64,000 bases of DNA from Minisyncoccota bacterium (GTDB lineage Bacteria; Patescibacteriota; Minisyncoccia; Phycocordibacterales; UBA9973): positions 4,618 to 68,617 of the forward strand of contig DATKGV010000008.1 of NCBI GenBank assembly GCA_035510575.1, written 5' to 3'. How positions within the stretch are numbered: the first letter of the stretch is position 1; the number at the start of each line of letters is the position of its first letter. The position numbers and the translations under genes were made by a program. The notes beneath the pieces are model-generated. The model ran no database searches. It saw nothing but the letters and a program-made list of their open reading frames with translations, and was not told the origin of the DNA. Shown piece by piece: positions 24,157 to 58,455 of the stretch.

Positions 24157-24200
24157 GATTTAGCAAGGACCGTCCTTGCTAATCTGTAGCTTTAGCTTTT

Positions 24201-25936: not shown

Positions 25937-25965
25937 AGATTTTAGTTCTTTAAAACGCAGAAACA

Positions 25966-26472
25966 TTATGGAAGCATTGTATGTTTTTGTGTAGCACGAT
26001 AGCATCCGTTATTGTCACAATAAGACCATACAAATTCATCCATTGTTAACGTCCAAATTTTAAGAGGGGCACCCAAAGATTGATTTATTTGTTTACCATC
26101 TGTACTCATAGTATAAGATGCTTGAAAATAAACTGATCCATTAGCATGATAACTCCAAGTACTATCAGCAGAATATAAATCATAATCAGTGTGAGCAAAT
26201 GGTATTGGATATTCAGTCCAATCATTAGCTCCGGGACCACTGCTTTTTTCTGCTTTGAAAGGATACCATTTCCCTGACATCAGGCACTTTTTCAAGCTAT
26301 CTAATGGCGATGCAATTTCATGCATAACTATATCTGCAACTGGCTTTTCTGCCATTGGGATATAGATTGTATCCTTAACCGTAATTATTCTCATACACGA
26401 CACTTTCTGTGCCATTAAGTTTGTGGCTCCTATTGCTATAATAGTAGCCAAAAAAAATAAAATCTTTTTCAT
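25966..26472 (-). CDS. secreted hypothetical protein
   Basis: N-terminal signal peptide 'MKKILFFLATIIAIGATNLMA'. No recognisable domain. Confidence 0.45.
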   Translation of the reverse strand: MKKILFFLATIIAIGATNLMAQKVSCMRIITVKDTIYIPMAEKPVADIVMHEIASPLDSLKKCLMSGKWYPFKAEKSSGPGANDWTEYPIPFAHTDYDLYSADSTWSYHANGSVYFQASYTMSTDGKQINQSLGAPLKIWTLTMDEFVWSYCDNNGCYRATQKHTMLP

Positions 26473-26484
26473 GGCTTAGAGTTT

Positions 26485-27009
26485 TTAATTTTTTATTATT
26501 TTTTTTGTTATTATAGCACCGTCATTCGTTTTTAAACGAAGAATATAGGCGCCTACTTTTAGATTCTGACCATTGATTATAAAGTCTTCAGTTGACTGAC
26601 TTGTCAATTGAGTACTTACAATCTGACCAGTAAGAGAGAATACATCAATACTTTTCACTTCTAAATTAGTCCTAAGTGAGAAATTACTTGATGAAGGGTT
26701 GGGATACACACTGACTTGATCAGTATTAGTTACAGTTTTAACATCGGTTGCCGATGTGTCATAAATGAAACTAAATCCAATAATATCAATGTCTTTTCCT
26801 GCATTGGTGTGGATAACAAAATTAAATTCACCACTAGAAGCTATTGGCAATGAAATATCCTTAAGGAGAAATTTCTGGTAGCTACCATCTGCAAGTACAG
26901 CACTAACTGTATTGACGTCATCTTGAGCGCTTATCCTTGATAAGCCAAATGACAAAAGTATCGTAACGAGTACGAACACTCTTTTCAGAAAGAGAATTTT
27001 TGCTTTCAT
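26485..27009 (-). CDS. secreted protein with a C-terminal beta-sandwich sorting-domain-like tail (T9SS type-A-like 'YPNP...' segment)
   Basis: Signal peptide. The C-terminus 'VYPNPSSSNFSLRT...GAYILRLKTNDGAIITKKIIKN' resembles Por/T9SS C-terminal sorting domains. Confidence 0.4.
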   Translation of the reverse strand: MKAKILFLKRVFVLVTILLSFGLSRISAQDDVNTVSAVLADGSYQKFLLKDISLPIASSGEFNFVIHTNAGKDIDIIGFSFIYDTSATDVKTVTNTDQVSVYPNPSSSNFSLRTNLEVKSIDVFSLTGQIVSTQLTSQSTEDFIINGQNLKVGAYILRLKTNDGAIITKKIIKN

Positions 27010-27234
27010 ATTTTCAGTTTTATTTATTTTTCAAAAATCAAATTTATATTAGAATTAGAACACGGAATACTCTTATTGACAAGTATAGGGCATTTTTAGG
27101 CATTTGTCAAGCTCAAAGGCCTTTGGCTGTGGAAAGAGTGGATAAAGGTTAGAAGGGGTTTCCAAACAAAAAGCCATATATTATATGGACTTTATGGTTT
27201 AAATCGTCCAAATTGCGATTATTATAGCTAACTA

Positions 27235-27519
27235 TTATCTTTGTAATTTGCGCTCTATTCGCCCAAAACGAATAAGCAGATTATCAAATTCGTGCCTAGG
27301 GACGAATCGGTCACCAAGATCCAATACGTCGCGGCGAGTGGCCTTCAAGTTTTCTTTTACCTCATTAAGATCTATTTTAATATCGGCAATATCCTTATCA
27401 ACGCTTTCAAATCTTTTATCAACGCCGTCAAATCTTTTATCAACACTTTCAAACCCCTTGGCAACCATAATCGCCAAATTGTCTATTGTCATGTTCTTTT
27501 TATTTGTAACCTTTTTCAT
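27235..27519 (-). CDS. small hypothetical protein with internal 'VDKRF(D/E)(G/S)VDK' repeats
   Basis: 94 aa with probable coiled coil and internal tandem repeats. Confidence 0.35.
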   Translation of the reverse strand: MKKVTNKKNMTIDNLAIMVAKGFESVDKRFDGVDKRFESVDKDIADIKIDLNEVKENLKATRRDVLDLGDRFVPRHEFDNLLIRFGRIERKLQR

Positions 27520-27545
27520 ATATTAAAACAGTTATTGATTATTTA

Positions 27546-27845
27546 CTATTTTGACAAGCTTTCAAGCTCTTTCAGACGGTCAGCGTCGCTTATCTTGGCG
27601 GCAGTTGAGGATTTGTTCAATTTACTCAGGTCCGAAAGGCGTTCTTGCTCGGTTGCCGTTACTGGCTTTGACTCTTCAGCAAGCTTCTGTAATTCTTGTT
27701 CTCTGATCAAGTCGGTATTGGCCATTTGGGACTTTCTATAAAAAACAAAGTACCAGATAGCGACAATAATGAGCAAAAACAATATGATGGCCGTGATGAC
27801 AATATTCTTGCTAGATTTGACGTTATTCATTTGATTTGGTTCCAT
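27546..27845 (-). CDS. small membrane-anchored coiled-coil protein
   Basis: Single TM helix 'IVITAIILFLLIIVAIWYFVFY' followed by a charged helical region. Confidence 0.4.
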   Translation of the reverse strand: MEPNQMNNVKSSKNIVITAIILFLLIIVAIWYFVFYRKSQMANTDLIREQELQKLAEESKPVTATEQERLSDLSKLNKSSTAAKISDADRLKELESLSK

Positions 27846-27889
27846 ATGATTATTGTAAACCCACGCCTGTGGCGGGGCAAGATTAACTA

Positions 27890-29482
27890 TTAAAATTCTT
27901 TAAAGATTGGCTTGACTACTTTCTTGCAAGTGGCAGGATTTGTATGGTCATTATCGGTGTGGCAACTGTCATCTCCGCAATCAATCTTACCATCACCATT
28001 ATTATCTATGCCATGCAAGCCATTCGGACAAATTTGAGGGCCTACAGTTATAGTTACTGTATCCGAACCGCTTCCGTATGTGTTTGAACACGTCATTGTA
28101 TAGCTGTTTGTATAACCAATTGAATCGGTTGCAGGAGGTAATGATACTTGAGCATTACTATTAGGTGCTGTATTAGATGTCCATGTTGGTGCTGAACAAG
28201 AAGTAGCATTTGGACTAAGCCATGAAAGAGTTGATGTTCCTCCAGCTGAATTAAATGATGGCGGAGTTGCCGTAAGCGTAACAGTCGGAGGTTGAGGAGT
28301 GATTACGCTGACAACAACTGAATTAGAAACTATCGTTGTACCGCCTTTTGTGCATTGAATTGTGAAAGTTGTATTTTCAGTTATAGGTTTTGTGTTTTCA
28401 CCTGGAGGATAAGCTAAATTAGCGGGTTCTGACTTAGTAGGATTCTGCCATAAACCGCTTCCAGGAACACATGAATATGAGGAGTCCAAGTTTGATGTCC
28501 ATGTAAGATTAGAAGTTCCATTTTTAGGCACGTTCGTAGGGTTGGCAAACAAAGAAACATATGGATATGATGATGCGCAAATGGTTCCATTCCAAGTAGA
28601 ACCGGACTGGCAAGTAGCATTGGCAGTAGAAGTAGCGACATCAATGGAATCTATGCCGTTTATATTCTGTGAAAGATGGAATGTTTCAGATCCGAAGGAA
28701 ATAGTAAATGCCTGTAAACCAGAACTGCCATCTGGTTTATAATAAGAACTGCTATCTGCTTTATGATAATTGGAAGTTAAAGAGTAAGCGCCAACAGGAT
28801 CTGTAGTGTTCCATGTTACAGTTGTGGAACATGAAGAAGCGCCCGCAGGAATAGTGCAATCCGGCGTAGTTAGCGTGCTAATAGCTGGCATTATACTAAC
28901 ATGATAATCATTAGCTCCAGAACAATCACTGGTGCTGCAACTTGATGCTGAAATCCAGCCGACTACATTACCGCCCCAAGCGTATCCAGTCACAATACCG
29001 GTAGCCAGATTGGCATTAAAACCCCAAGAGTTGCTATCTCCATCGCTATCAGAACTTAAAGCAATAAGACCGTTCCACCCACTAGATCCATCGCTGCCAG
29101 AAATGGTCTTTGCCCATCCTGAAAATTTTCCAGTTGACGACATATTAGGTTGGCATTTTGTTCCGCAAACAGCTAAATCATTGCTGGTAAATTCACCGAT
29201 ATTAAACGAAATCCAGCCGACATTGGAAGACCAAGCATATCCTGAAAGATTGCCACTCGTTGGATTAATACTTACGCCATAGCTAGTACCGGGACACGTA
29301 GTAACGTCTGTACAATTATTAAATGAAATCCAGCCGATATTGGAGGACCAAGCGAAACCGTACATCTGCCTATCGCTGTCATGACCTGCCATAGCATTAT
29401 TAGCCTGGACAATCGTCTTGCCAAAAACAAAGATGGCACAGATGGAAAGAATGGCTATTGTAAAAATATATTTAGCGCGCAT
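27890..29482 (-). CDS. secreted repeat protein (4-5 copies of a ~45-aa 'GYAWSSN(V/I)GWISFN' module) with Cys-rich C-terminal domain
   Basis: Signal peptide 'MRAKYIFTIAILSICAIFVFG'. Repeated 'AWSSNIGWISFN' modules. C-terminal 'CPNGLHGIDNNGDGKIDCGDDSCHTD'. Confidence 0.5.
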   Translation of the reverse strand: MRAKYIFTIAILSICAIFVFGKTIVQANNAMAGHDSDRQMYGFAWSSNIGWISFNNCTDVTTCPGTSYGVSINPTSGNLSGYAWSSNVGWISFNIGEFTSNDLAVCGTKCQPNMSSTGKFSGWAKTISGSDGSSGWNGLIALSSDSDGDSNSWGFNANLATGIVTGYAWGGNVVGWISASSCSTSDCSGANDYHVSIMPAISTLTTPDCTIPAGASSCSTTVTWNTTDPVGAYSLTSNYHKADSSSYYKPDGSSGLQAFTISFGSETFHLSQNINGIDSIDVATSTANATCQSGSTWNGTICASSYPYVSLFANPTNVPKNGTSNLTWTSNLDSSYSCVPGSGLWQNPTKSEPANLAYPPGENTKPITENTTFTIQCTKGGTTIVSNSVVVSVITPQPPTVTLTATPPSFNSAGGTSTLSWLSPNATSCSAPTWTSNTAPNSNAQVSLPPATDSIGYTNSYTMTCSNTYGSGSDTVTITVGPQICPNGLHGIDNNGDGKIDCGDDSCHTDNDHTNPATCKKVVKPIFKEF

Positions 29483-39333: not shown

Positions 39334-39334
39334 G

Positions 39335-39405
39335 TGCGGGACGGGAGAATCGGACTCCCGCCAACAGTTTGGAAAACTGTAGTTCTACCACTAAACTAGT
39401 CCCGC
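39335..39405 (-). tRNA. tRNA-Gly (anticodon UCC)
   Basis: Cloverleaf: acceptor GCGGGAC/GTCCCGC, D-arm with GG, anticodon arm ACAGT-TTTCCAA-ACTGT. Shares D and T arms with the tRNA-Gly(GCC) at 40644-40717. Confidence 0.6.
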
Positions 39406-39467
39406 CTTCGTTTTGCGCAGGCTTGCAGGCCCGCTTTGCAAAGTAATAAAACAATTTCCAGATATTG

Positions 39468-39541
39468 TCGGGGTGCCGGGATTCGAACCCGGAGTCGCCT
39501 GTTCCCAAAACAGGAATGTTAGCCGTTACACCACACCCCGA
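39468..39541 (-). tRNA. tRNA-Pro (anticodon UGG)
   Basis: Acceptor CGGGGTG/CACCCCG with the C1:G72 pair characteristic of bacterial tRNA-Pro. Anticodon loop TTTGGGA. Confidence 0.65.
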
Positions 39542-39550
39542 AAAACTAAT

Positions 39551-39621
39551 TCGGAGTGCCGGGAATCGAACCCGGTTCTCACGAACCCGAATCGCGTATA
39601 CTACCGGTGTACTACACTCCG
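39551..39621 (-). tRNA. tRNA-Pro (anticodon CGG), tentative
   Basis: Acceptor CGGAGTG/CACTCCG (C1:G72), T-arm CCGGG-TTCGATT-CCCGG, anticodon arm CGCGA-TTCGGGT-TCGTG. Confidence 0.5.
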
Positions 39622-39667
39622 ATTGGACTCAATAATATTAGCATATTTTTAATTAAAAACAATTAAA

Positions 39668-40093
39668 TTATAAAATAATATTATCTATTGTTTTCACGCG
39701 GGCTTTTTTTTGTTTGAGATCAAGATACACAAGTAATAGATCAAATTGCCAAGGAGTGTTCCCTATTCTTTTATGAATTAAATATGTTTGAATTGTCCGT
39801 GAAAGCCGTTTCATTTTCCAAGGATGCATATTTTCTTCAGGCCTTGATATGAACGGATTGGTTTCTCGTGTAACATCGCATGCCTGCCCGCCAACATTTA
39901 CTAATGGGCGGGAAACGGACTTAACTTCTATAAAATATATTTTACCCTCTTTCTCCGAAATAATATCAATCTCACCCCATTTTTTAGTATAATTTCTTTC
40001 TAACACAGAAAAACCTTTACTAATAAGATGTTTACAAGCTATATCTTCTCCCAATTGCCCTATTTTTTGAGAATTTGAAGTAAATTTTTTCAT
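39668..40093 (-). CDS. yraN: YraN-family (UPF0102) endonuclease
   Basis: 'GEDIACKHLISKGFSVLERNY...GEIDIISEKEGKIYFIEVKSVSRP' matches the YraN/Holliday-junction-resolvase-like fold. Confidence 0.6.
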   Translation of the reverse strand: MKKFTSNSQKIGQLGEDIACKHLISKGFSVLERNYTKKWGEIDIISEKEGKIYFIEVKSVSRPLVNVGGQACDVTRETNPFISRPEENMHPWKMKRLSRTIQTYLIHKRIGNTPWQFDLLLVYLDLKQKKARVKTIDNIIL

Positions 40094-40396
40094 ATATGTT
40101 TCACATGAAACGTTATATATATATATAAAAGACAATGGATTGTCCTTTATATATAATATCCTTATTATATCAACTTATTTCTGTAAAATAGCAATTTTAA
40201 CTTTCAAAAATCTTTTAATTATTGGTGTCTTTTATAAACAATGCACACATAGTTATCCACATAAATCTTAATTTTAAAGGTTTTTTAATGTGTATAAAGG
40301 ACTAATAAAGGTCAAAAAGAAATTTGTGTGGTCACAAGTATTTTTCTACTAAAAAATCTCGCGACCCCGCCTCGGTTCGTCAACCTCCGGCTTGCA

Positions 40397-40440
40397 CAAA
40401 TTATTAAATTAAATACTTTTAATTTAATAATTTGTGCACC
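40397..40440. repeat. perfect AT-rich 20-bp-stem palindrome GCACAAATTATTAAATTAAA...TTTAATTTAATAATTTGTGC directly 3' of tRNA-Arg
   Basis: Generates the mirrored spurious ORFs 40312-40497(-) and 40328-40510(+). Probable terminator or processing hairpin. Confidence 0.55.
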
Positions 40441-40506
40441 TACCAGGACTCGAACCTGGAACATCTGCTTCGAAGGCAGGTATGATATCCATTTCACTAT
40501 AGGTGC
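40434..40506 (-). tRNA. tRNA-Arg (anticodon UCG), tentative
   Basis: Acceptor GCACCTA/TAGGTGC, T-arm CCAGG-TTCGAGT-CCTGG, anticodon loop CTTCGAA with U33. Confidence 0.5.
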
Positions 40507-40643
40507 ATAAAACTATAAATCATTATACATAAATAATCATTATTTACAAAATATGTTTACAGATTAAGGTTAAAAATAAATTGCATTTAATCATTAAAAA
40601 TATTATAATCCAACTCAGGTTGTAATTTTATTAATAAAAATAT

Positions 40644-40717
40644 GCGGAATTGGTTTAGTGGTAGAACACGTCCTTGCCAAGGATGAGACAGGAGTCCGAT
40701 TCTCCTATTCCGCACCA
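40644..40717 (+). tRNA. tRNA-Gly (anticodon GCC) with encoded CCA
   Basis: Acceptor GCGGAAT/ATTCCGC, anticodon arm CGTCC-TTGCCAA-GGATG, 3' CCA present. Confidence 0.65.
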
Positions 40718-40724
40718 AATTTTT

Positions 40725-42446
40725 ATGGCTGATAAGCCAATCATAAACAATTCAAAAATACCATCTTATGTTACACATGTAACAGAAACACTCAAAAATG
40801 CTGGTTTTGAGAGTTTTCTTGTGGGTGGCTGCGTTCGTGATCTTATACTTAATAAGGAACCAAAGGACTGGGATATTACAACAAATGCTAAACCTGAAGA
40901 AATAATAGCTTTATTTGAGAAAACCGTATATGAAAATACTTTTGGAACAGTGGGGGTGTTTATTCTTGATGTTTCGCATGAAACAAAGGAAGATGTTACA
41001 CGTGTAACTAATAATGATGTTAATCCCGCCGACGGATTACCTGTGGCGGGCAGGCATGAAACAGATAGGGATGTTACACGGGAAACACCTCAATATAATA
41101 TAGTTGAAGTTACACCATATAGGATTGAAGCAAAATATAGCGATTTTAGGCACCCAGATAAAGTTAAATTCAGTGAAAACGTTGAAGATGACTTAAAAAG
41201 ACGTGATTTTACTATAAATGCTATGGCATATGATTCTGATAAAGGACATTTAATGGACTTATTTGATGGGATAAAGGACATAAAGGACAAAGTGATAAGA
41301 GCGGTAGGGAAGCCGAGCGATAGATTTAATGAAGATGCATTGCGAATGCTTCGAGCTATCAGGTTTTCCACACAATTAAATTTTGTAATTGAATATGACA
41401 CGATGCAAGCAATTGTGGATAACTCTCATTTGTTAAAAAATATTTCTGAAGAAAGAATTCGTGATGAATTTATAAAAATTATTGAATCAAAAAATTCTGC
41501 AATGGGAATTGGAATGTTATCAAAATTAGGATTACTAAAATATATTATTCCAGAACTTGAAGAGGGAATTGGCTGTGTTCAAGGAGGAGCTCATACTCTT
41601 GATGTGTTTGAACATTTATTAAAAGCGCTTGAATATGCTTCAGATAAAAATTTCTCAATTGAAATTAGATTGGCTGCATTATTTCATGATATTGGAAAGC
41701 CAAGATCAAGGAGAAATAATGCAGGATTTATAGAACCAGAAACCAATTTATCAGGTCCTCGGATCTCCTCGCTTATAGCTCGGCCAGACCATGCTAAATT
41801 AGTTTCTGGTTCAAAAAATTTAAAGAAAAAATACACATTCTATGGCCATGAAGTTGTTGGTGCAAAAATGACACAAAAAATTTTGGATCGATTAAAATTT
41901 CCAAAAAAGATTTCTGATTTAGTTGTGTCGATGATTCGCAATCACATGTTCTTCTCTGATACAGAACAGATTACACTTTCTGCAGTGCGTCGTATTGTGC
42001 AAAAAGTTGGACCCTCCGACGCTAAAGCTTTGGCGGGCAGGAAAGAAAATTATCCAATTTGGGATTTAATGAAAGTTAGAGAGTGTGATAGAGCTGGAAT
42101 GAAGAAAAGTGAATCACCTTATCGCTTGCGAAAATATTACGCCATGATTGAAGAAGTACTACACGATCCGATTTCTGTCGGCCAACTTGCTATTGATGGG
42201 GAAGTATTAATAGGTGAGTTACACATGAAACCATCGCCTCGTATGGGCTGGATTTTACATGCCTTACTTGAAGAAGTCCTTGATGATCCAACAAAAAATG
42301 ATAAAGGACATCTAATGGACATTGCTAAATCATTAGATTTATTGGGGGATAATGAATTAAAAGCATTAGGTGAAAGAGGGAAGGAAGAAAAAGAAAAGTT
42401 AGAACAAGAAGAAATTAAAAGGTTACATGAGAAACATGGAGTATAA
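40725..42446 (+). CDS. cca: CCA-adding tRNA nucleotidyltransferase (poly(A) polymerase family head with HD domain)
   Basis: Pol-beta nucleotidyltransferase motif 'GGCVRDLILNKEPKDWDITT' and HD motif 'HDIGKP'. The ORF track start inside the tRNA is spurious, so the start is taken at 'MADKPII'. Contains a tandemly duplicated insertion (see findings). Confidence 0.75.
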   Translation: MADKPIINNSKIPSYVTHVTETLKNAGFESFLVGGCVRDLILNKEPKDWDITTNAKPEEIIALFEKTVYENTFGTVGVFILDVSHETKEDVTRVTNNDVNPADGLPVAGRHETDRDVTRETPQYNIVEVTPYRIEAKYSDFRHPDKVKFSENVEDDLKRRDFTINAMAYDSDKGHLMDLFDGIKDIKDKVIRAVGKPSDRFNEDALRMLRAIRFSTQLNFVIEYDTMQAIVDNSHLLKNISEERIRDEFIKIIESKNSAMGIGMLSKLGLLKYIIPELEEGIGCVQGGAHTLDVFEHLLKALEYASDKNFSIEIRLAALFHDIGKPRSRRNNAGFIEPETNLSGPRISSLIARPDHAKLVSGSKNLKKKYTFYGHEVVGAKMTQKILDRLKFPKKISDLVVSMIRNHMFFSDTEQITLSAVRRIVQKVGPSDAKALAGRKENYPIWDLMKVRECDRAGMKKSESPYRLRKYYAMIEEVLHDPISVGQLAIDGEVLIGELHMKPSPRMGWILHALLEEVLDDPTKNDKGHLMDIAKSLDLLGDNELKALGERGKEEKEKLEQEEIKRLHEKHGV

Positions 42447-42450
42447 GAAA

Positions 42451-42477
42451 AATAACCGACATAATCGGTTATTTTTT
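42451..42477. terminator. bidirectional Rho-independent terminator AATAACCGACATAATCGGTTATTTTTT
   Basis: 8-bp stem flanked by A/T runs between convergent cca and the 42476-43420 gene. Confidence 0.55.
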
Positions 42478-43420
42478 ATTTTTCAGGATTATTATAGTCC
42501 CAACCATGATGTTTATAATTTTCTTTTTTATCTTTATTTTTTGGTGTCTTAGGATTATGAAAAATGCCTCTTTCCATTGATTTTGTTATAGGATTATACG
42601 TAAATGACTTTAACCCTTCTATGTTTGGTAAAGATGCTTCTGATGTAGGAGTTATAGTTATTCCCCCATTTTCAACATTTCCTTTTTCTATTACATCTCC
42701 TATTAGTTCACTGTGTTGGTCTAATGGCTTTCCTATTGAAGCTTCTAGTGCGGACTGTTTTGCAAATAAATGCCTACCTTCTGGTTGATCAAGCAATGAA
42801 CGCTTTACCATTCCCTTGTAAGGTTCTCCTTTTTGCCACCATGTGCTATCCTTGCCAGATTTATCATTCTTTCTTATTTTTCCCATATCATTATGAATAA
42901 TCCAATTATCTAAATTATCTTCAGTTTCATTAAATTTATAAAATTGATCATTATTTATTGGCGTACTAGCATCTGAAACATTATATTTTTTTTGATATTT
43001 TAATTTTCTTTTAGAAGGATAAAGTTCATCAGGACGGGGCATAAAATCATAAGTGCTGTCTACAAGATCAAAACCCCCTTTAAATTTTCTAATATGATAC
43101 ATTCGGCCATCTTTTTGTAGATATTGTGAACCATAAACGTCAATTATCTTGGCTCCTTCAGGTAAAGAAGGAGTAAATCCTGAATAAGATTCATTAGGTG
43201 CAATTAGTTCTTCTTCTAATATACGATTAGCAGATAGATTATCTGCTAAAGTTTTATCCATTTTACTATTATCTAGTAATTTAGATAATAGTGTGGCTTT
43301 AAAATTAGGTGTATTTTTTATTAGTGTTCTAATTTTAGCCAAATTTGAAACTTTAGATTCCTTATCTAAAATAGATTCTTTTTTGGGGTCTTCCTTTTTT
43401 ATTAGATTAAAATTTTCCAT
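42476..43420 (-). CDS. Lys-rich hypothetical protein
   Basis: 314 aa. No recognisable motif. Confidence 0.4.
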   Translation of the reverse strand: MENFNLIKKEDPKKESILDKESKVSNLAKIRTLIKNTPNFKATLLSKLLDNSKMDKTLADNLSANRILEEELIAPNESYSGFTPSLPEGAKIIDVYGSQYLQKDGRMYHIRKFKGGFDLVDSTYDFMPRPDELYPSKRKLKYQKKYNVSDASTPINNDQFYKFNETEDNLDNWIIHNDMGKIRKNDKSGKDSTWWQKGEPYKGMVKRSLLDQPEGRHLFAKQSALEASIGKPLDQHSELIGDVIEKGNVENGGITITPTSEASLPNIEGLKSFTYNPITKSMERGIFHNPKTPKNKDKKENYKHHGWDYNNPEK

Positions 43421-43443
43421 AGATTAATTTTACTACAAAAAAA

Positions 43444-44211
43444 CTAAAACTCAATCATTATTGGACAGTGATCGGAACCATAGTAATCAGATAGAGTTTT
43501 AAAATCTTTTATTTTTTTCATGAAATTTTTATCTACAAAAAAGTAATCTATGCGCCAGCCGACATTTCGGTCGCGTGCGCGAGTTATCTGATCCCAATAA
43601 GTATAAACATCTTTTTTATTTGGGTTAAGAGTACGGAAAGTATCCACAAATCCATTGTCTATAACTTTATCTATCCATTCTCGTTCCATCGGTAAGAACC
43701 CAGTTGAATCCTCATTATCTTTTGGACGAGCAAGATCAATAGCGGTGTGTGCTGTATTTACATCTCCAGTGAAAATCACATTATATCCGGCCTTCTTTTT
43801 CCTATTTATAAATTTTAAAAATGCATCATAAAACTCCATTTTATATTTTAATCGTACAGGTCCACCACCACCATTAGGGAAGTAGCAATTGATTAAAATA
43901 AAATTTTTATAATAAGAAATAACCGTGCGACCTTCATCATCAAATTCTTCTATGCCAATTCCATATTCAACTTTCTCTGGTTTTACTTTTGAATAGATAG
44001 CTACTCCACTGTAACCTTTTCTTTTTTTAGAAAATGAGAAATAAGAATTGTAACCAAAATAATTTCGGATTTCATTTGGCAATTGCTCTGGCTCACATTT
44101 TGTTTCTTGAAAGCAAACAATATCGGGTTTGTATTTCGAAAATAGGGGATAAAAATGGCCTTGATTGGCTGTAGCTCTTAACCCATTTGTGTTCCATGAA
44201 ATTATTTTCAT
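43444..44211 (-). CDS. xth: exodeoxyribonuclease III (EEP family AP endonuclease)
   Basis: Starts 'MKIISWNTNGLR' with 'FQETK' and a C-terminal 'GSDHCP' catalytic His. The ORF track N-terminal extension to 44277 is translation of a GC-rich repeat element. Confidence 0.8.
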   Translation of the reverse strand: MKIISWNTNGLRATANQGHFYPLFSKYKPDIVCFQETKCEPEQLPNEIRNYFGYNSYFSFSKKRKGYSGVAIYSKVKPEKVEYGIGIEEFDDEGRTVISYYKNFILINCYFPNGGGGPVRLKYKMEFYDAFLKFINRKKKAGYNVIFTGDVNTAHTAIDLARPKDNEDSTGFLPMEREWIDKVIDNGFVDTFRTLNPNKKDVYTYWDQITRARDRNVGWRIDYFFVDKNFMKKIKDFKTLSDYYGSDHCPIMIEF

Positions 44212-51155: not shown

Positions 51156-52724
51156 ATGTCATTTGCAAGAGTTTATTCTGCGCAGACACATTTAATAAAA
51201 GGAAAAATTGTCACGGTGGAAGTTGATATTACTAAGAACACCCTGCATGCTTTTACTCTTGTCGGGCTTCCTGATAAAGCCGTGGATGAGTCAAAAGACA
51301 GGATGAGCTCGGCGCTGAAAAATTCCGGATTTGCTTCTCCCAAGAATCAAAATCAAAAAATAGTCATATCTCTTTCGCCGGCTGATCTTAAAAAAGAAGG
51401 CCCCTATTTTGATTTAGCGATTGCTCTTGCATATCTGCTGTCGGCTGAGGAAATTGATTTTGATCCTAAAGACAGGGTATTTCTCGGAGAACTTTCGCTT
51501 AATGGCGAACTGCAGCCGATCAAAGGCGCCCTTCCTCTTGCAGAAGCGGCTAAAAAACTTGGATTTAAGGAAATTTATCTGCCGATCATGAACGCCAAAG
51601 AAGCGGCGCTGGTGGACGGCATAACTATTTACGGAGCAAAGACATTAAAAGAAGTCATTGATCATATTTATAAGATAAAATACGACAAAAAAGGAAATCC
51701 TTTAGAACAGGAAAAGCCGAAATTAAAACCTCAGCCAAAAACAATAATAGAATACGCCAAGAAAAATCCTGAAATAGATTTCTCCGATATCCGCGGACAG
51801 GAAGCTGCCAAGCGCGGTTTGGAAATCGCGGCATCGGGAGGGCACAACATAGCGATGTCAGGACCGCCCGGTACCGGCAAGACAATGCTTGCCCGCGTTT
51901 TTTCAAATATACTTCCAGAGCTGAAAAAAGACGATGTGCTGGAAATTACCGGCATTCATTCTGTGGTCGGGCAACTGGACGGCGAACTTGTCACAGAACC
52001 GCCGTTTCGAGCGCCGCATCATACCGCAAGCTATGTCTCTATGATTGGCGGAGGATCCATTCCCAAGCCCGGAGAAGTGACTTTGGCTCACAAAGGAGTA
52101 TTGTTCCTGGATGAATTTCCCGAATTTGAAAAGAGAGTTCTTGAATCGCTGCGTCAGCCGCTTGAAGATAATTTCGTGTCAATTTCCCGAGCCAAAGAAT
52201 CCGCAATATTTCCATCAAATTTCATATTAGTAGCCGCTATGAATCCGTGTCCCTGCGGAAATCGCGGCAACAAGCAGAAAACTTGCATCTGCAAGCCGAG
52301 CGATTTGGACAAATATCAAAGAAAATTATCAGGCCCGATAATGGACCGCATCGACATTTGGGTGACAGTCGGCGCTGTTGATTATGATAAGCTTTCAAAT
52401 ATGGAACAAGTTGGGGATAAGACATTTAATATAAAAGATAGAGTAAAAATGGCTCGTGATATACAGGCAAAAAGATTCAAGAATGCAGCCAGAAAAATAA
52501 GCTCAAATAGCGAAATGAACGTCAAGGAACTGGGCATATATGCCCCGCTAACGCCTGAAATAAAACAATTATTGAATCAAAGCGCGGAGAAGCTTCAATT
52601 ATCAGCCCGCGCCTATCACAGAGTTATAAAATTGGCGCGCACGATTGCTGATCTTGAAGGAAGCGAAAATATAAATCAACCTCATATTCTTGAGGCCTTG
52701 CAATACAGGCCTAGGGTAAATTAA
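51156..52724 (+). CDS. comM: YifB/ComM-family Mg-chelatase-like AAA+ ATPase
   Basis: N-terminal Lon-like domain, Walker A 'GPPGTGKTM', Walker B 'VLFLDEFPEF' and a C-terminal chelatase subunit ChlI-like region. Confidence 0.75.
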   Translation: MSFARVYSAQTHLIKGKIVTVEVDITKNTLHAFTLVGLPDKAVDESKDRMSSALKNSGFASPKNQNQKIVISLSPADLKKEGPYFDLAIALAYLLSAEEIDFDPKDRVFLGELSLNGELQPIKGALPLAEAAKKLGFKEIYLPIMNAKEAALVDGITIYGAKTLKEVIDHIYKIKYDKKGNPLEQEKPKLKPQPKTIIEYAKKNPEIDFSDIRGQEAAKRGLEIAASGGHNIAMSGPPGTGKTMLARVFSNILPELKKDDVLEITGIHSVVGQLDGELVTEPPFRAPHHTASYVSMIGGGSIPKPGEVTLAHKGVLFLDEFPEFEKRVLESLRQPLEDNFVSISRAKESAIFPSNFILVAAMNPCPCGNRGNKQKTCICKPSDLDKYQRKLSGPIMDRIDIWVTVGAVDYDKLSNMEQVGDKTFNIKDRVKMARDIQAKRFKNAARKISSNSEMNVKELGIYAPLTPEIKQLLNQSAEKLQLSARAYHRVIKLARTIADLEGSENINQPHILEALQYRPRVN

Positions 52725-52762
52725 CATAATAAAAAATATCGAACCATATGGTTCGATATTTT

Positions 52763-53038
52763 TTATGCTTTCTTCTTTATTACAGTTTTCTTTTTTGCGG
52801 TTACTTTTTTGGCTGAGTGGGGAGCATTGTCAAGAGTGATAAGCGGGGGATTGATGATGAGTTTCTCAGCAACTTTTTTCTTTTTTACAGTTTTCTTTTT
52901 TTTAACTGCTACTTTTTTAGTTACCGATTTTACGGCTGAAACAGCCGTACTGGATGAACTTGTTGCGGCAAAACTGCTTATTGGATAACCAACAAATAAA
53001 GATATAATTATTAATACTGGAATAATTTTTTTAATCAT
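52763..53038 (-). CDS. small secreted Lys-rich protein
   Basis: Signal peptide followed by a KKKxxVKKKK low-complexity region. Confidence 0.35.
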   Translation of the reverse strand: MIKKIIPVLIIISLFVGYPISSFAATSSSSTAVSAVKSVTKKVAVKKKKTVKKKKVAEKLIINPPLITLDNAPHSAKKVTAKKKTVIKKKA

Positions 53039-54173
53039 TGATCATTAAATCAGTGCTGTTAATTTTCAGTCCCACATAAGGGTTGCCAAGAGTGCCATGG
53101 AATCCGATATGAACATGAGGCCCGGTAGAATGACCAGTAGAACCAACATAGCCTATTATATCGCCTTGCTTGACGATATCGCCGGCCTTTGCTGCAACTT
53201 TACTCATATGGCCGAAAATGGCTTGGCGCCCGTCATTAAAGTTTATAACCACATATAATCCGTAACCGCCGTTATATCCGGTTGAATGAGCAATTAAGAC
53301 GATACCGCTTTGGACCGCGTATATGGGCGTGCCCTTTGGAGCAGCGAAGTCATATGCCTGGTCGGCATGCAATCCTTGAGAAATTCGTCCAACTCCTTCC
53401 GGGAATGGCCATATATACCCGCCTACTACTGTGCCTGTCGGTTGACCGGTTGGTGTTGCAGGTTCTGCTGCAGGTGTAACATTTGTTGTCGTATCAACAG
53501 TAGGTGCTGGTGCTGGCACTGGTGCTGGTGCTGGTGCTTGCAATTGATCAACTTCATCGGCAGGTTTGTTTGTATTTGTCTGGATTTGTTCTGAAGAAGA
53601 AACATCTGTTTTTTCGTCTTCTTTTTTAATAACCGGCTTTGGCATGTCGTCTTTGACAGGCAAGATAACAAGAGTTTGACCTATTTTGAGAGTATCTTTA
53701 TCCTCTAAGTCAGCGTTAGAGTAAAAGATAGTGTCTTTTGATATTTTAAATTTCTTGGCTATGCTTTCAAGAGTGTCGCCTTCTTTGACGATATAAACGT
53801 TAATTTTTGCAGATGAAGCGTATTTTTCCAAATCGTTGGCTGGTCCGAGAGACCCATTATTGGAAAGAAGCGTTCCATCTTCAACTACTGCCGTATTATC
53901 TTGCGTATTATTGATATTTTTCATGTCTGGATCAATAGACGATTCAGGAAGAGGTATGGTTTGGGAATTATAGACGACATTGTCATTGGCAGAAGTTGCT
54001 GCAGCCGGCTGATCTGCTTGAGCAGTTTGGCTTTTTCCAAGAATCCCCGATACTAAATCAGAAAAAAATCCGGCATTTGCCTGTGTTGGAATGCCAATTA
54101 TTGGTATTAAAACCAGCAACAGAAAAAAGACCTTGACAATATGAGCCTTGATAAATAAGGATATTTTCATCAA
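53031..54173 (-). CDS. LysM-domain M23-family metallopeptidase
   Basis: LysM 'YIVKEGDTLESIAKKF', (PA)n linker, and M23 catalytic 'HSTGYNGGYGLYV...GSTGHSTGPHVHIGF'. Confidence 0.75.
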   Translation of the reverse strand: MMKISLFIKAHIVKVFFLLLVLIPIIGIPTQANAGFFSDLVSGILGKSQTAQADQPAAATSANDNVVYNSQTIPLPESSIDPDMKNINNTQDNTAVVEDGTLLSNNGSLGPANDLEKYASSAKINVYIVKEGDTLESIAKKFKISKDTIFYSNADLEDKDTLKIGQTLVILPVKDDMPKPVIKKEDEKTDVSSSEQIQTNTNKPADEVDQLQAPAPAPVPAPAPTVDTTTNVTPAAEPATPTGQPTGTVVGGYIWPFPEGVGRISQGLHADQAYDFAAPKGTPIYAVQSGIVLIAHSTGYNGGYGLYVVINFNDGRQAIFGHMSKVAAKAGDIVKQGDIIGYVGSTGHSTGPHVHIGFHGTLGNPYVGLKINSTDLMIND

Positions 54174-54618
54174 ACGACCATTTTGATCATCAAAATTGTC
54201 GTTTGAATCTTTTATTTTGAGTAAAATAAGCCTAAATTAAATAATCACACCACATTGCCCCCAAACAGGAACTACAGTACGACCGCAAAAGCGAGGGCTG
54301 TAATCATATAAGCAACGCGAGTGATTGTTACAATCATCTCAGAAATGCTGTAAAATAAAGGTTTTTTCTGATAAATCAGTACAAGAGGGCCCTATACCAT
54401 TGAACCCTGCCTATAAGGGTAGCCCATGTGAAAGCATTAGTCAATAAAGTAATCCACAGTTTAGATTCCCCTCTTCTAGGGTGGATTTTGTAATCAAAAG
54501 ACGGGGTGGAATAAATTAAATGCATCCACCTCCCCCGCATTAGCGGGTACTCCTCAAGAGGAGAATAAACCAGAACATAAAATTAAATTTTTGACAAGAA
54601 GAGGGGTATTGTTGTATA
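54174..54618 (+). ncRNA. 445-nt non-coding, hairpin-rich region (candidate structured RNA or long 5' leader of the giant ORF). Identity unknown.
   Basis: No ORF in a compact genome. Three consecutive stem-loops at 54503-54570 (GGTGGA..TCCACC, CCCGC-ATTA-GCGGG, CTCCTC-AA-GAGGAG) immediately before the 54619 start codon. Confidence 0.3.
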
Positions 54619-57600
54619 ATGGCAGGTATGACAAATGAAGTTCCCCCAAAAACTAAAAATAAAGAAATTGCACACGCAGATAAAGTTAATGCCCGCATAG
54701 AAGAAGTCAAAAAAAGACAAGTAGAACTTGCTGAATTAATTAAATCGCCAAACAACAAGATGGCTATAGAAGAAAATAATGAGCTTGTAAAAGAGGCGTT
54801 ATCGCTTGATAAAGAATCAAATATAATAAAAACAGAATCTCTAGAAAAAACAAATAAAAAAGCATATGAAATATATGAGAAGAGAAAAAGAGAGGGAAGA
54901 GAGGGCAATGAAAAGACAGATTGGGAACAAGCTGAAAAAGAATTAAATGCAGATAACGAAAAAAAGACGGGGAAAATTAAAGAAAACATAAATTTTGACC
55001 TCAATAAAAAAGATGAAGAGAAAAATAAGAAAATTCTTGATAACAAATTAGTACAGGCAGGATTAAGTAAAGATGATTTTAAAAATATTCCAGAGTGGAA
55101 TGATCTTTCGGCTGGACAAAAAATGCTCGTGGTTGAACAGGCCTCTCAAGATACTCTTTCGCGTGTGAGAGAAATAGGAGAAAAGAATTTTCAAGAGAAA
55201 AATAAGCTTTCAATAAAAGATCCAAAAACATTGCCCAAAAAGATTCTTCATCGTTTATTTAAAAAAGTTTGGATTAGCAAGGAAGAAAAAAGCGTTATTG
55301 AGGATGTGCGAAACGGCAAAATAAAACCAGATGAAGAAAAATTAAAACAGTTGGCGGAAAGAACTGCTGATATGGATTTAAATGCCACTATCAAAGATGG
55401 CAAGGCAAGTGTTGAATTCATACCAATCGATAAAAGTTTATCAAAAGAACAGCAGGAAGTTGTTGAAAATTACAATAAACTTGCAAATGAATTCTCTAAA
55501 ATGCCTGACTCTTGGAAGAATGAGAAAGCTGCAGCAAGCAAGAAAAGTAATTTATTTAATAAAAATAAGTCAGAACATTACGACAAATATAAAAATATAG
55601 AATTACAATATAATGAAGCGCTTAAAACATTACTTGAATTGAAGGCAAAGAACTACGATCCAAACACTATGATTCAAACTTCAAATGGCGTATATGAAGA
55701 ATCACAAAAAGTTGCAAAAGAAAAAGCCATGCTTGAAATGAAAGATAGCGATTTTAATGTAGCCATGCTTCAATTCACAAATACTAATCCAGATGCCATA
55801 GAAGAATTAAATAAAATACGAAATGAAAGTTCATGGGGAAGATTGGTAAATAATGAAACCATCTGGCGAGGATTATATATGGGTATCGGCTATGGCGCAC
55901 GCAAGGGATTAACATATTCTTTTGGATTGCTTGCAGCGCCAATTGTCGCTGGAACTATTGGAGGAATTCGCGCTCGTGAGAAAGCCAAGCAAAAAATAAA
56001 TACGGCGTTCATGGAAGGACGCAATGAAGAAACATTTTTAGAAAGAAAAGAAGCGGGCAAAAAAGGAGCAGTTGATGATAAAAATAAAAATACTGGAATT
56101 ATTTCAAAAGTGTTTAGCGGTCAAAAAATAAATACCAAAGAAGTTGCCGCTTTTGTGGATGCTGACAGTCAGATGCAAAGATTGAATAATATAAAGCAAA
56201 AATTAGAAAAAGTTAGTTCGAAAGAAGAAAGATTTAGATTAAATTCTGAACTTTACCATCGCTTGAGTTTTGTTGAAGAAAAACTTCAAAAGGGTCTGAT
56301 AAATTATGGAACAAAGAATGCTATTGGCAAGAATTATGAGCTGTTAAAAATTTTAGGTGAAACGTCAATACAAATCGCAGAACCTTCTCCAGATTTAATA
56401 AAAGAAGATAATAGGCGCCATGAATTGCTCCAAAAAATAATGAAAGATAATGAAGCTAAGCTGGGAAGCAAGCAAGCTATCATTAAGAATCAAGAAATGC
56501 TGCGAGGCATGGCAGTCAGCGCAGGATTTGCAACTCTTGGATTTTATATTCGTGAATTTATGCATCATGGCGCACCGACTATAGGCGCTCATGCTGGTGC
56601 AATTAACGCGCATATTGAAAACGGCCACTTGATAAAAAATATTGATGCAACGCAGGCGGATAAGCCATTGAATGAAGCAATGATGAAAAACTATTTCCCG
56701 AATACGAAGCTCGATAATGAGTTGCATGAAAATATTTTAAATCCTGATGCAGTTGTCCATAAAGGCGAAGGAATAGAAAGCACATTCATCAGGCAGATTC
56801 AAAATAATCATGAATTGGCAAAATCTCTCGGATTCAAGGGAGATGCAAATGATGCAAATGCATTACATGAATTTGCCGGACGCGAAGCGCATATTTTGGC
56901 GATAAAAGAAGGATATGTAGGAAGTGATGGACAAGAAATAAGAGTTGCAGATGCAGACAAAGTGGCTTATGAAATAAAAATGGAAAATGGGCATGCGGTC
57001 ATTAATGAGAAAACCGTCGATGGGAAAATAGTTGAAACGCATCATGAAGGAGATAAATTTGAAGCGACAAAAGCAAATAAATATGAGAGAGTTCATACAA
57101 ATGAAATAAAAAAAGTTGAAGTAGAAAATGAAAATAATGAAAATATAGATAGTACGAAAACAGAAGAGGTAACGGAACCTAAGCCAATATCAAAAAATAT
57201 AAGCGGCTACGATTTCAGCAATAAGGAAAAAGCAATTGCCGACTTTGATGATGTGAGCGAGGAAACAAAAGGCACTTACGCGGAGGATTTGATGAAAGTT
57301 AACGATGATCCGACGGAGCAGAATGATGTGGGCAAGGCCCTGATTGCTTTGCGTGAGACAGTTAAAGCAAACACTGGCAAATTGATTAATCCAAATCCTG
57401 ATGAAAGCTTGCATGATTACGTCCATAGATTGATGAACGCCGATTCAAATGCGCCGACAGAAAAAATAGGCAGGCCGAATTTTGAAAAGATGGAATCAAT
57501 ACCTGCAAAAAATGTCGGGGTAGAACATGCGCAGACAGCACAGCCAAAAATTAGGCAAGTTGAAGATAATTATATTAAAAATGATTCAAGCATAAATAAG

Positions 57601-58455
57601 ACGCCCACTAATATTGATGGAAAAACGACACTTTCGGCATCAGAAGCAAATAGATTTTCTGATTTGGCTAGAGAAAATAAAATTCTTGATGCACATATAA
57701 AAGAAGATAATCCGTTCAAAGGAGAAACTTTTGCGTCTGATTCTACACATTATAGGCAAGTCGGCTTTGGTGAAAGCAAGGATCTTGAAATTGCAAGAAA
57801 AATTGCCAATACTGATTACAGAGCAAAGATTGCCATGGAAAGCGGCGTAATTAAATTAGGAGCATCAAATGATATGGAATTGCATGACCTTAAAGAAGTA
57901 GTCATGCAAGACAAAACAACTGGTTTGTATCATGTTTATCATGCAGTTGAAGTTGATAAACCTGCATCGTCAGTTAGTGGTACTGAACATATCGCCGTTG
58001 TTGAGAATAAAGCTAATATACATGAAAATAATTATGAAAAATTTCATAAAGCATTTCCGAATAGCGAGCAGGTGCATGGCATGCCTCGCGCAGAATATGA
58101 CAGCAAGGTTGAAAATTATCTAAAGAGTAAAGGAATAACATGGGCAGATGATGCTAAACGAGATACAGATTTATGGCTATGGGAAAAATTTGGAAAAGTG
58201 GATCCAATGCAGAGTCCGGATGAGAATCCGCTCTGGCAATTGGCAAAAAACAGCAGAGACCCTTCTGCTCTGGACTTAATGGAAGTTGGAAAAGATGAAG
58301 GAAATAAATACAGAGTTGGACAGGAACTTGTAAAGCTCTTTAATCTTGTTAAAGTTCAGACAGGAGAAGAAATATATCCGAATATAAGCCCGGTTGAAAC
58401 TCCTAATGAATACGTTTATCGTTTGATAGAAGCGCTTGAAAGAAAAAACTCTTAA
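54619..58455 (+). CDS. giant (1278 aa) Lys/Glu-rich coiled-coil protein with two central hydrophobic helices. Unknown function.
   Basis: Long uninterrupted ORF with strong AT-rich codon usage consistent with the genome. Predicted TM segments around residues 420-450 and 640-660. Confidence 0.55.
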   Translation: MAGMTNEVPPKTKNKEIAHADKVNARIEEVKKRQVELAELIKSPNNKMAIEENNELVKEALSLDKESNIIKTESLEKTNKKAYEIYEKRKREGREGNEKTDWEQAEKELNADNEKKTGKIKENINFDLNKKDEEKNKKILDNKLVQAGLSKDDFKNIPEWNDLSAGQKMLVVEQASQDTLSRVREIGEKNFQEKNKLSIKDPKTLPKKILHRLFKKVWISKEEKSVIEDVRNGKIKPDEEKLKQLAERTADMDLNATIKDGKASVEFIPIDKSLSKEQQEVVENYNKLANEFSKMPDSWKNEKAAASKKSNLFNKNKSEHYDKYKNIELQYNEALKTLLELKAKNYDPNTMIQTSNGVYEESQKVAKEKAMLEMKDSDFNVAMLQFTNTNPDAIEELNKIRNESSWGRLVNNETIWRGLYMGIGYGARKGLTYSFGLLAAPIVAGTIGGIRAREKAKQKINTAFMEGRNEETFLERKEAGKKGAVDDKNKNTGIISKVFSGQKINTKEVAAFVDADSQMQRLNNIKQKLEKVSSKEERFRLNSELYHRLSFVEEKLQKGLINYGTKNAIGKNYELLKILGETSIQIAEPSPDLIKEDNRRHELLQKIMKDNEAKLGSKQAIIKNQEMLRGMAVSAGFATLGFYIREFMHHGAPTIGAHAGAINAHIENGHLIKNIDATQADKPLNEAMMKNYFPNTKLDNELHENILNPDAVVHKGEGIESTFIRQIQNNHELAKSLGFKGDANDANALHEFAGREAHILAIKEGYVGSDGQEIRVADADKVAYEIKMENGHAVINEKTVDGKIVETHHEGDKFEATKANKYERVHTNEIKKVEVENENNENIDSTKTEEVTEPKPISKNISGYDFSNKEKAIADFDDVSEETKGTYAEDLMKVNDDPTEQNDVGKALIALRETVKANTGKLINPNPDESLHDYVHRLMNADSNAPTEKIGRPNFEKMESIPAKNVGVEHAQTAQPKIRQVEDNYIKNDSSINKTPTNIDGKTTLSASEANRFSDLARENKILDAHIKEDNPFKGETFASDSTHYRQVGFGESKDLEIARKIANTDYRAKIAMESGVIKLGASNDMELHDLKEVVMQDKTTGLYHVYHAVEVDKPASSVSGTEHIAVVENKANIHENNYEKFHKAFPNSEQVHGMPRAEYDSKVENYLKSKGITWADDAKRDTDLWLWEKFGKVDPMQSPDENPLWQLAKNSRDPSALDLMEVGKDEGNKYRVGQELVKLFNLVKVQTGEEIYPNISPVETPNEYVYRLIEALERKNS

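Follow-up and report, generated by a model that had tools for sequence, protein, structure and literature searches.

A covarying RNA structure upstream of a LysM/M23 peptidase gene as a candidate cis-regulatory leader in a Paceibacterota genome

The stretch of DNA analysed here, hereafter referred to as the window, comprises 64,000 nucleotides (nt) of contig DATKGV010000008.1 (assembly GCA_035510575.1) from a Minisyncoccota bacterium. At 54174–54618 it contains a gap of 445 nt between a peptidase gene on the minus strand (53031–54170) and a gene for a giant protein on the plus strand. This gap, and in particular a conserved structured element on its peptidase side, is the subject of this study. 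An earlier note on the same DNA had described the gap as a hairpin-dense leader of the giant gene, free of open reading frames (ORFs), and had proposed that it might be a structured RNA of a new kind, a leader with a regulatory role or a degraded gene. Because the upstream gene is encoded on the minus strand, the gap separates two divergent genes and is not automatically a leader of the giant gene. It holds three separate things, which are a putative leader of the peptidase gene, the promoter region of the giant gene, which probably has no leader, and a cluster of palindromes.

The length of the gap and the absence of a long ORF were described correctly in the earlier note; it is not strictly ORF-free, because mechanical ORFs of 40 and 54 amino acids (aa) are present. 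Nine six-frame fragments of at least 25 aa were compared with Pfam as the only database and gave no match at E ≤ 1. No Rfam family was found in the gap when the whole window was searched at the gathering score and 53900–54900 at E ≤ 10, and 11 related loci gave no relevant match at E ≤ 5. The transfer-messenger RNA (tmRNA), RNase P, signal recognition particle (SRP) and 6S RNA, none of which had been recognized by eye before, also remained without a match to the Rfam or ARAGORN models. ARAGORN detected neither a tRNA nor a tmRNA in the gap, and the tRNAs of the window are all located elsewhere. Terminator-like sites were absent from both strands of 53800–54900.

The product of the minus-strand gene showed matches to the Pfam families LysM (E 4e-11; 43 bits, cut-off 20.9) and Peptidase_M23 (E 8e-25; 87 bits, cut-off 28.7) as well as partial NCBIfam matches of the MepM/ShyC/NlpD-like type. 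It possesses an N-terminal signal peptide, and the metal-binding HxH motif is intact (PHVH as read in the sequence). Judging from these features, the gene encodes a predicted secreted, NlpD-like M23 peptidoglycan endopeptidase.

The comparison started from 16 genomic loci which encode homologues of the giant protein (single loci are designated by L and a number). The region of the window at ~54191–54460 recurs in these loci with ~73% nucleotide identity (nhmmer E-values from 1e-15 to 1e-29), in two of the 16 not beside the giant gene. With a pattern derived from the conserved block (AAGNGTA-N4-AT-N10-TAGTCAA-N5-TNNTNCAC, plus strand), 40 more metagenome loci were retrieved, and the ~270 nt beside the peptidase gene (54170–54459) were found in ~38 non-redundant contigs of Paceibacterota. 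In all loci with enough flanking sequence, the element abuts residue 1 of an NlpD-like homologue on the opposite strand, and the spacing between element and peptidase gene is fixed (~210–250 nt; ~130–155 nt in a short form described below). The gene order comM, small ORF, nlpD-like gene (minus strand), element, variable insert and uvrD is kept across the loci. The slot between the nlpD-like gene and uvrD is occupied by the giant gene or by other ORFs (354 and ~800–935 aa), or it is empty (eight loci), so that uvrD directly adjoins the element (L021, L026, L027, L030, L046, L049, L050 and L056). On the contig of the closest homologue of the giant protein, three genes lie between the peptidase gene and the giant gene. 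Since the peptidase gene is the constant neighbour and the other neighbour is variable, the element belongs to the peptidase gene. The NlpD-like proteins share 26–52% identity between the loci and evolve much faster than ComM (75–86%) and UvrD (56–78%, mostly 70–78%).

Read on the minus strand, cross-locus conservation begins sharply at the box CTGTGNATWAC, which is located just 5' of a promoter-like box (Table 1). The latter consists of the −35 hexamer TTGACT (54439–54444), a spacer of 17 nt and the hexamer TACCCT at the −10 position (54416–54421); its invariant core is TTGACTA-N10-AT-N4-TACNCTT, and a copy search found the box once in the window. The GGG and CCC of the spacer show no covariation, as GGG varies in the alignment and CCC does not. 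Both upstream boxes are invariant without covariation, which fits a DNA signal, and the transcript of the peptidase gene is predicted to start near 54409. We infer that the conserved block is composed of the promoter-like box and a structured 5' leader of the peptidase gene of ~240 nt.

This putative leader starts with hairpin P1, the sequence of which differs between the loci, although the hairpin is present in every one of them. The P3 helix is paired to 82% (helix 1 in the count of named pairs) and shows compensatory variants in L049 (AUGCUU/AAGCAU), L046 (UGCUUUU/AAAAGCA) and L047 (AGCC/GGCU). In the three-way junction, a closing stem formed by P4 and P4b surrounds the short hairpin P7 and the hairpin P5/P6 with its asymmetric internal loop (GGUCGUAC), the sequence of which is invariant. 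For the linker between the junction and the start-codon hairpin P8, no covarying pairing partner was seen on inspection of the alignment.

Table 1. Features in and around the divergent intergenic region (positions in the window).
Feature	Position	Strand	Basis and remarks
LysM + Peptidase_M23 gene (NlpD/MepM-like, 379 aa)	53031–54170	−	Pfam, NCBIfam, sequence reading
Hairpin P8, irregular stem of ~16 bp at the start codon	54170–54206	−	Inverted repeat, folds, register counts
A-rich single-stranded linker, consensus UUAAUUAGGCUUAUWAAAC..CAAAAGAUUC	54207–54241	−	Alignment
Three-way-junction module, 85 nt	54242–54326	−	RNAalifold, covariance model, folds
Segment with small hairpin P3 in relatives (AAGCUU-loop-AAGCUU)	54338–54383	−	Alignment; degenerate in the window
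Hairpin P1, predicted to open the transcript	54384–54411	−	Per-sequence folds
Promoter-like box CTGTGGATTAC, TTGACT-17-TACCCT	54416–54444	−	Near-invariant across loci
Conserved upstream box CTGTGNATWAC	54449–54459	−	Alignments; just 5' of the −35 hexamer
Three back-to-back perfect GC-rich palindromes	54505–54530, 54534–54547, 54550–54563		Folding, copy searches
Promoter of the giant gene, TTGACA-18-TATAAT, 12/12 consensus	54591–54620	+	Promoter scan
Giant gene, 1275 aa from ATG 54628	54628–58455	+	Homologues, promoter position

Eleven loci (L001, L012, L019, L021, L025, L028, L030, L036, L037, L043 and L047) possess a short form of the element, in which the 85-nt junction is missing, with promoter box, P1, P3, linker and P8 all retained. 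In L037 this form resembles a clean excision, with ..GAUUGUAACAAUUAUGCC directly joined to UAUAAAAC.., and in the other short forms GUCCCACYUAAUUAUGCAAU replaces the junction.

Further candidates within the block were rejected. For a helix P2 (CUGAAA/UUUCAG flanking P3), no consistent complementarity was found across the loci, and pairings of the linker sequence AGGCUU with P3 and of GAUUGUAAC with the 5' strand of P5 were discarded, as the sequences were either invariant or lost the pairing where they varied. A second promoter in the linker was dismissed because its hexamers have no T at position 6. An RpoH-type reading of the promoter box would require a spacing of 19 nt in comparison to the 13–15 nt of the E. 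coli consensus.

The region 54242–54326 is, according to the alignments, a conserved structured domain supported by covariation. RNAalifold predicted P4, P5 and P6 with compensatory changes in 10 of 19 pairs. When 40 named pairs were counted, 81.8% of the cells were paired (32–49% with slid partners), and 23 of these pairs change on both sides. The covariation score was 0.264 in comparison to 0.175 for shuffled alignments and was reached by none of 500 shuffles, a control that ignores phylogeny. The closing stem P4 was paired to 95.8%, with six of its eight pairs being compensatory, P5 to 99% and P6 to 98%. P4b likewise covaries (AUUAC/GUAAU, CUUAC/GUAAG, UUUAC/GUAAA and AUCAC/GUGAU). In all 26 full-length cores, the structure of minimum free energy (MFE) consisted of the closing stem and the P5/P6 arm, and the full two-branch junction including P7 was obtained in 22 of them.

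A covariance model (R1) yielded 29 matches over 46 sources (484 kb), with at most one copy per locus and always on the strand of the peptidase gene. The window contains a single match (54224–54337; 112 bits; E 4e-17). The model also detected a diverged copy in L016, in which P4 is entirely different in sequence yet complementary (UAUCGCGA/UCGCGGUA). For the local blocks of P1, P3 and P8 no structure was returned by RNAalifold, as MAFFT had placed the stems out of register, and these hairpins were assessed by fixed-register counts and per-sequence folds instead.

With regard to the strand, P4–P6 contain 80 G·U cells and a single A·C cell, and the minus sense is more stable for P1 in 21 of 24 loci (mean z −3.1) and for the core in 22 of 24. 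The asymmetry of G·U and A·C together with the stability of P1 and the core indicates an RNA in the sense of the peptidase gene. At the level of sequence comparison, these observations establish a conserved structured minus-strand RNA between the promoter-like box and the start codon of the peptidase gene. The novel structured RNA suspected in the earlier note is thus present and lies outside Rfam, but it occupies the minus strand at 54170–54459 and does not coincide with the hairpins noticed then. The suggested regulatory leader sits at the position of a 5' leader as well, only that this leader belongs to the divergent LysM-M23 gene and not to the giant gene. The comparison of homologous upstream regions led to the same result, as it revealed a conserved covarying RNA linked to the peptidase gene.

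The hairpin P8 includes the beginning of the coding sequence. In a fixed register over 27 loci, the basal pairs U(−36)-A(+1) and C(−35)-G(−1) are each formed in 25, and the A of the start codon and the preceding G are thus located inside the helix. The third pair covaries, and the inner pairs alternate between AU, GC and GU. Altogether, 61% of the cells were paired in this register in comparison to 33–54% in other registers, 12 of 16 pairs (helix 5) showed changes on both sides, and P8 also occurred in the MFE folds of 24 loci. Since the genome appears to lack Shine-Dalgarno sites, access to an open AUG region should mainly determine initiation, and control could plausibly be exerted by a helix into which the A of the AUG is drawn.

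The structured RNA of the conserved block probably acts in cis as the 5' untranslated leader of the peptidase mRNA. In the mechanism which we favour, initiation would depend on an open, A-rich start region, and P8 would set the accessibility of the AUG. The three-way junction would sense a small molecule or a protein and shift the accessibility of the AUG or the stability of the mRNA, and the outcome would be a tuned production of the secreted peptidoglycan hydrolase. That the junction is the aptamer of a new riboswitch class of Paceibacterota, a lineage of the candidate phyla radiation (CPR), which opens or closes the start-codon hairpin and in this way controls translation of the hydrolase, appears rather unlikely to us. 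The same reservation applies to the signal which would go with such an aptamer, a cell-wall-derived, host-derived or second-messenger molecule.

At the opposite end of the gap, the promoter of the giant gene comprises TTGACA (54591–54596), a spacer of 18 nt and TATAAT (54615–54620). The longest-ORF call for this gene (54619–58455; 1278 codons) is the longest ORF in the window, as had been noted before. Its ATG at 54619 lies inside the −10 hexamer, and for this reason the in-frame ATG at 54628, 7 nt past the hexamer, is the likely start. An identical public protein (P0001, labelled Candidatus Paceibacterota) also starts at this second ATG (1275 aa). The homologues in L002 and L004 have the same TTGACA-18-TATAAT promoter 5–6 nt upstream of their ATG, and in L007, L008 and L014 the ATG of the homologue is preceded by TATAAT at a distance of 6–8 nt. 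At least 11 long ORFs of the window carry a perfect TATAAT 6–8 nt before their ATG, and essentially no Shine-Dalgarno-like sequence was present among 58 ORFs of the window that were inspected. Examples of this pattern are the starts at 1616, 5294, 7963 and 9897 on the minus strand and at 8043, 35603, 45805 and 54628 on the plus strand.

Transcription of the giant gene should, according to the promoter position, start at or beside the A of ATG 54628, and its mRNA is probably leaderless. The genome as a whole appears to make wide use of leaderless initiation independent of Shine-Dalgarno sites. A GAGGGG found upstream of the giant gene is part of the promoter spacer and is taken as a coincidence. 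Frequent leaderless promoters and the apparent lack of Shine-Dalgarno sites matter for the calling of gene starts in these genomes, as illustrated by the giant gene, where the longest-ORF call begins 9 nt too far upstream. The longest-ORF starts at 17964 and 33894 are probably wrong as well, since TATAAT follows them.

The three back-to-back perfect hairpins of the gap (GGTGGA-N14-TCCACC, CCCGC-ATTA-GCGGG and CTCCTC-AA-GAGGAG) are real. They occupy 54505–54563 between the two divergent promoters and fold better than shuffled sequences (z −3.9 on the plus and −3.6 on the minus strand; 0 of 200 shuffles), and this stretch ranks first among three 80-nt stretches of the window which hold three such hairpins. 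Their position immediately 5' of the start codon, as stated in the earlier note, was not confirmed. They end 55–65 nt upstream of the start, with the consensus promoter in between, and 28 nt upstream of its −35 hexamer. On the plus strand none of them is followed by a U-tract. The palindromes are probably part of an untranscribed spacer, outside the predicted transcript of the giant gene.

All related loci lack the palindromes, and the spacers there amount to ~30–70 nt in comparison to ~130 nt in the window. For the two short palindromes no further copy exists in the window. In three other assemblies of the same strain (L057, L058 and L059; two from Logan, one from ENA) the palindromes are identical. 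These assemblies end within the gap, at 54531, 54287 and 54481, which suggests that the palindromes or strain variation break assemblies at this site. The GTGGA core of the conserved upstream box reappears in the first palindrome; extra copies of the GTGGAT core are located in the window at 54481–54487 (inverted) and 54505–54510/54525–54530, and additional direct or inverted GTGGAT/ATCCAC copies occur just upstream in L011, L048, L036, L032 and L055. GTGGATT is present in the window at chance rate only. The repeats of the GTGGAT core may represent the operator of a transcription factor, whereas the palindromes themselves are regarded here as a strain-specific insertion, which is unexplained.

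It is probable that a peptidase leader on the minus strand, a leaderless giant gene and strain-specific palindromes in an untranscribed spacer together account for the locus. The gap including the three hairpins could alternatively represent a plus-strand structured 5' leader of the giant gene, either an attenuator or a protein-binding leader. The hairpins are unusually stable, a weak −10-like TGTAAT (54488–54493) could start a transcript including them, and −35 boxes are often poor in this genome. Nevertheless, this explanation is very improbable, because the 12/12 promoter is located downstream of the hairpins with its −10 hexamer ending 7 nt before ATG 54628, homologues show the same leaderless arrangement, related loci are devoid of the hairpins, the conserved RNA is minus-sense and follows the peptidase gene, and no terminator-like site was detected between 53800 and 54900. 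Conservation might also act at the DNA level only, in a shared divergent promoter/operator region without a functional RNA structure. The invariance of the promoter box and of CTGTGNATWAC without covariation agrees with this view, as do the GTGGAT-like half-sites repeated upstream in several loci, including the first palindrome of the window. It leaves the compensatory changes, the 95–99% pairing of P4–P6, the 80:1 ratio of G·U to A·C and the identical fold of dissimilar sequences unaccounted for and is contradicted for 54242–54326. As an explanation of the whole element it is scarcely credible, but it may apply to the palindromes and to those boxes that precede ~54409.

A free-standing small RNA (sRNA), either trans-acting or processed from the 5' untranslated region (UTR), with a peptidase promoter nearer to the start of the gene, is a distinctly unlikely interpretation of the conserved minus-strand RNA. 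The junction is self-contained and cleanly absent in L037 and the short forms, and the conserved linker sequence GGCTTATWAAAC looks faintly −10-like in the alignment. Against this, neither a terminator nor a U-tract follows the junction on the minus strand before the ATG is reached, conservation is unbroken from the promoter box to the start codon with fixed spacing, the hexamers of the linker lack the T at position 6 of the −10 boxes of this genome, and no locus has more than one copy, with none found elsewhere. A degraded protein-coding gene, to which only the mechanical ORFs of 40 and 54 aa would point, can practically be dismissed, because the six-frame fragments gave no Pfam match at E ≤ 1, the paired columns carry compensatory changes and the size and position of the element are constant in ~38 genomes. 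It is quite possible, though we hesitate to call it probable, that the palindromes are a recent insertion in this strain (a palindromic or mobile remnant, or assembly-prone DNA) without any regulatory role. The enlarged spacer between the promoters (~130 nt versus ~30–70 nt in relatives), the single-copy state of the palindromes in the window and the ends of three independent same-strain assemblies at 54287, 54481 and 54531 are in line with an insertion, whereas a second copy that would indicate mobility was not found in the window and the GTGGA core shared with the conserved box hints at an operator.

The interpretation of the conserved block as a regulatory leader of the peptidase gene has to be weighed against several observations. 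The hexamer TACCCT is atypical, as other promoters in this genome read TATAAT, and both the point at which transcription starts and the length of the RNA are predictions from sequence. The eleven short-form loci have no junction and keep the gene, so that the junction is dispensable for expressing it. Neither a terminator on either strand (53800–54900) nor an alternative pairing with covariation was found, so that a switch is no more than a proposal; the association of the leader with a single gene type gives no clue to a ligand. P3 is slightly more stable in the plus sense in 21 of 24 loci and P8 in 19 of 24 (z −3.1 and −3.2, respectively, versus −2.5 and −2.7 in the minus sense); the G+U-rich plus strand is the only suggestion we can offer, and otherwise we cannot explain this preference. 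In the fixed register, P8 also has more A·C than G·U cells. Finally, the start codon is not AUG in four of 29 loci (ACG, AUA, AAU and GUU), and L040 and L047 lack exactly the entire P8 hairpin together with the AUG.

The loci with an altered or absent AUG of the peptidase gene (54168–54170 in the window) are L046, L026, L030, L001, L040 and L047. Non-AUG initiation, pseudogenes or a collapse of the assembly at the inverted repeat could be the reason.

Rfam 15 contains four RNA motifs of related context, lysM-TM7, lysM-Actino, lysM-Prevotella and M23. They are conserved structured RNAs in presumed 5' UTRs of lysM/M23 genes, discovered by comparative genomics (PMC5737381), among them lysM-TM7 from a CPR lineage (PMC5737381), and were reported as candidates for regulation by the second messenger cyclic di-AMP (c-di-AMP) that failed to bind it; their function and ligand are unknown (Weinberg et al. 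2017, PMC5737381). In other phyla, the ydaO c-di-AMP riboswitch controls genes for cell-wall hydrolases and LysM proteins (PMC5737381). Like the lysM/M23 motifs, the element of the window and of the related loci precedes a gene of this kind, here one for a LysM + Peptidase_M23 protein, and lies in its presumed 5' UTR. It differs from them in its long composite leader, the optional 85-nt junction, the start-codon hairpin and the Paceibacterota lineage, and the Rfam models of the motifs gave no match on the window element or on 11 related loci (E ≤ 5–10). We therefore file the leader as resembling these motifs in role and as a member of none, with homology neither shown nor excluded. The ydaO riboswitch is a precedent for metabolite control of this gene class, but the leader has no match to its Rfam model, no pseudo-two-fold architecture and no terminator.

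In ROSE and fourU thermometers and in translational riboswitches the start region is held in a helix, as P8 does with the A of the AUG and the preceding G; here, there is no Shine-Dalgarno sequence to sequester and no match to ROSE or fourU. Attenuators with intrinsic terminators have a GC-rich stem and a U-tract, which the leader lacks between promoter and start codon. Leaderless mRNAs occur in bacteria, and the giant gene, with a −10 hexamer that ends 7 nt before the ATG, has the arrangement predicted for such an mRNA. Literature searches on riboswitches and RNA motifs of the CPR returned nothing on this element, and searches on leaderless genes or riboswitch regulation in Parcubacteria returned nothing either in the collection of papers covered. 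We present the leader as a candidate cis-regulatory RNA which is new, has no Rfam family and belongs to a gene for a peptidoglycan hydrolase in the CPR.

Members of the CPR (Patescibacteria) are ultra-small, mostly uncultivated and thought to live mostly as episymbionts, and to our knowledge almost nothing is known about gene regulation in these bacteria. The leader provides a concrete and testable regulatory element for this group, which is supported by covariation. The secreted peptidoglycan hydrolase encoded downstream is relevant to the division of the cell itself or to an attack on the wall of the host. In addition, structured RNAs recur before lysM/M23 genes in distant phyla for reasons that have not been explained, and the leader is a further, independent example. 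If the junction does bind a ligand, it would point to a signal that controls wall remodelling and might serve as a native expression switch for CPR genetics.

The giant protein itself is extremely rich in lysine (12.1%) and glutamate (11.1%), as had been recognized before, and contains no cysteine. Hydrophobic stretches are located at ~409–447 and ~623–645 (1275-aa numbering), and the two mid-protein hydrophobic helices of the earlier note were found again at ~413–447 and ~623–645. The statement that the protein has no recognisable domain also stands, since no significant match was obtained to Pfam, NCBIfam, PHROG or PDB sequences, the last of these searched with the single sequence and with a profile; DUF2934 reached 18.1 bits, below its cut-off of 22. 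It is, however, no orphan. At E ≤ 1e-98, 26 homologues were detected including the identical P0001, and the remaining 25 originate from CPR metagenomes and share 35–53% identity over 40–76% of the query. Besides the 16 genomic loci mentioned above, a profile search of 1.84 billion cluster representatives yielded 1,110 relatives at E ≤ 1e-3, of which 372 reached E ≤ 1e-30, and every named relative belongs to the CPR. N-terminal and C-terminal modules of the protein also occur separately. The homologues have ~1,000–1,700 aa; their N-terminal half is helical and conserved, and the C-terminal half varies.

In an AlphaFold model, residues 130–705 are all-helical (mean predicted local distance difference test, pLDDT, 73.5; predicted template modelling score, pTM, 0.69), the first hydrophobic stretch being folded into a helical hairpin and the second forming the end of a helix of 59 residues. 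With respect to the coiled coil named in the earlier note, this model bears on the helical content only. A Foldseek comparison of this model with the PDB gave a best E-value of 3.3. The protein is ~40% identical between loci in which the flanking ComM and UvrD share 70–86%, which means that it evolves fast. On the basis of its sequence relatives, it is a member of a large, fast-evolving helical family that is, as far as its members are named, restricted to the CPR. It resembles the large membrane and surface proteins of CPR/Patescibacteria in size, CPR restriction, fast evolution, hydrophobic anchor helices and a variable C-terminus, but it has no named family, Pfam domain or structural neighbour. 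One may guess that it is anchored in the membrane and exposes its variable C-terminal half. Membership in such a family, which counts more than 1,100 clusters, makes it a candidate surface or host-interaction factor.

One homologue (P0019) possesses an FtsK gamma domain, a winged-helix DNA-binding domain, near its N-terminus (Pfam, 1.3e-10), which argues for a cytoplasmic location of the N-terminal part in this protein family.

Some further observations concern other parts of the window. The G+C content is low (0.30–0.36) at 6001–8000, 22001–28000 and 40001–44000 in comparison to ~0.41 elsewhere. A cluster of five tRNA genes is located at 39334–40717; four of them (Gly-TCC, Pro-TGG, Pro-CGG and Arg-TCG) are encoded on the minus strand and one (Gly-GCC) on the plus strand. 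At 52691–52770, where the end of comM converges with a small ORF on the minus strand, a strong double hairpin (21 bp in total) is present, which is likely a bidirectional terminator.

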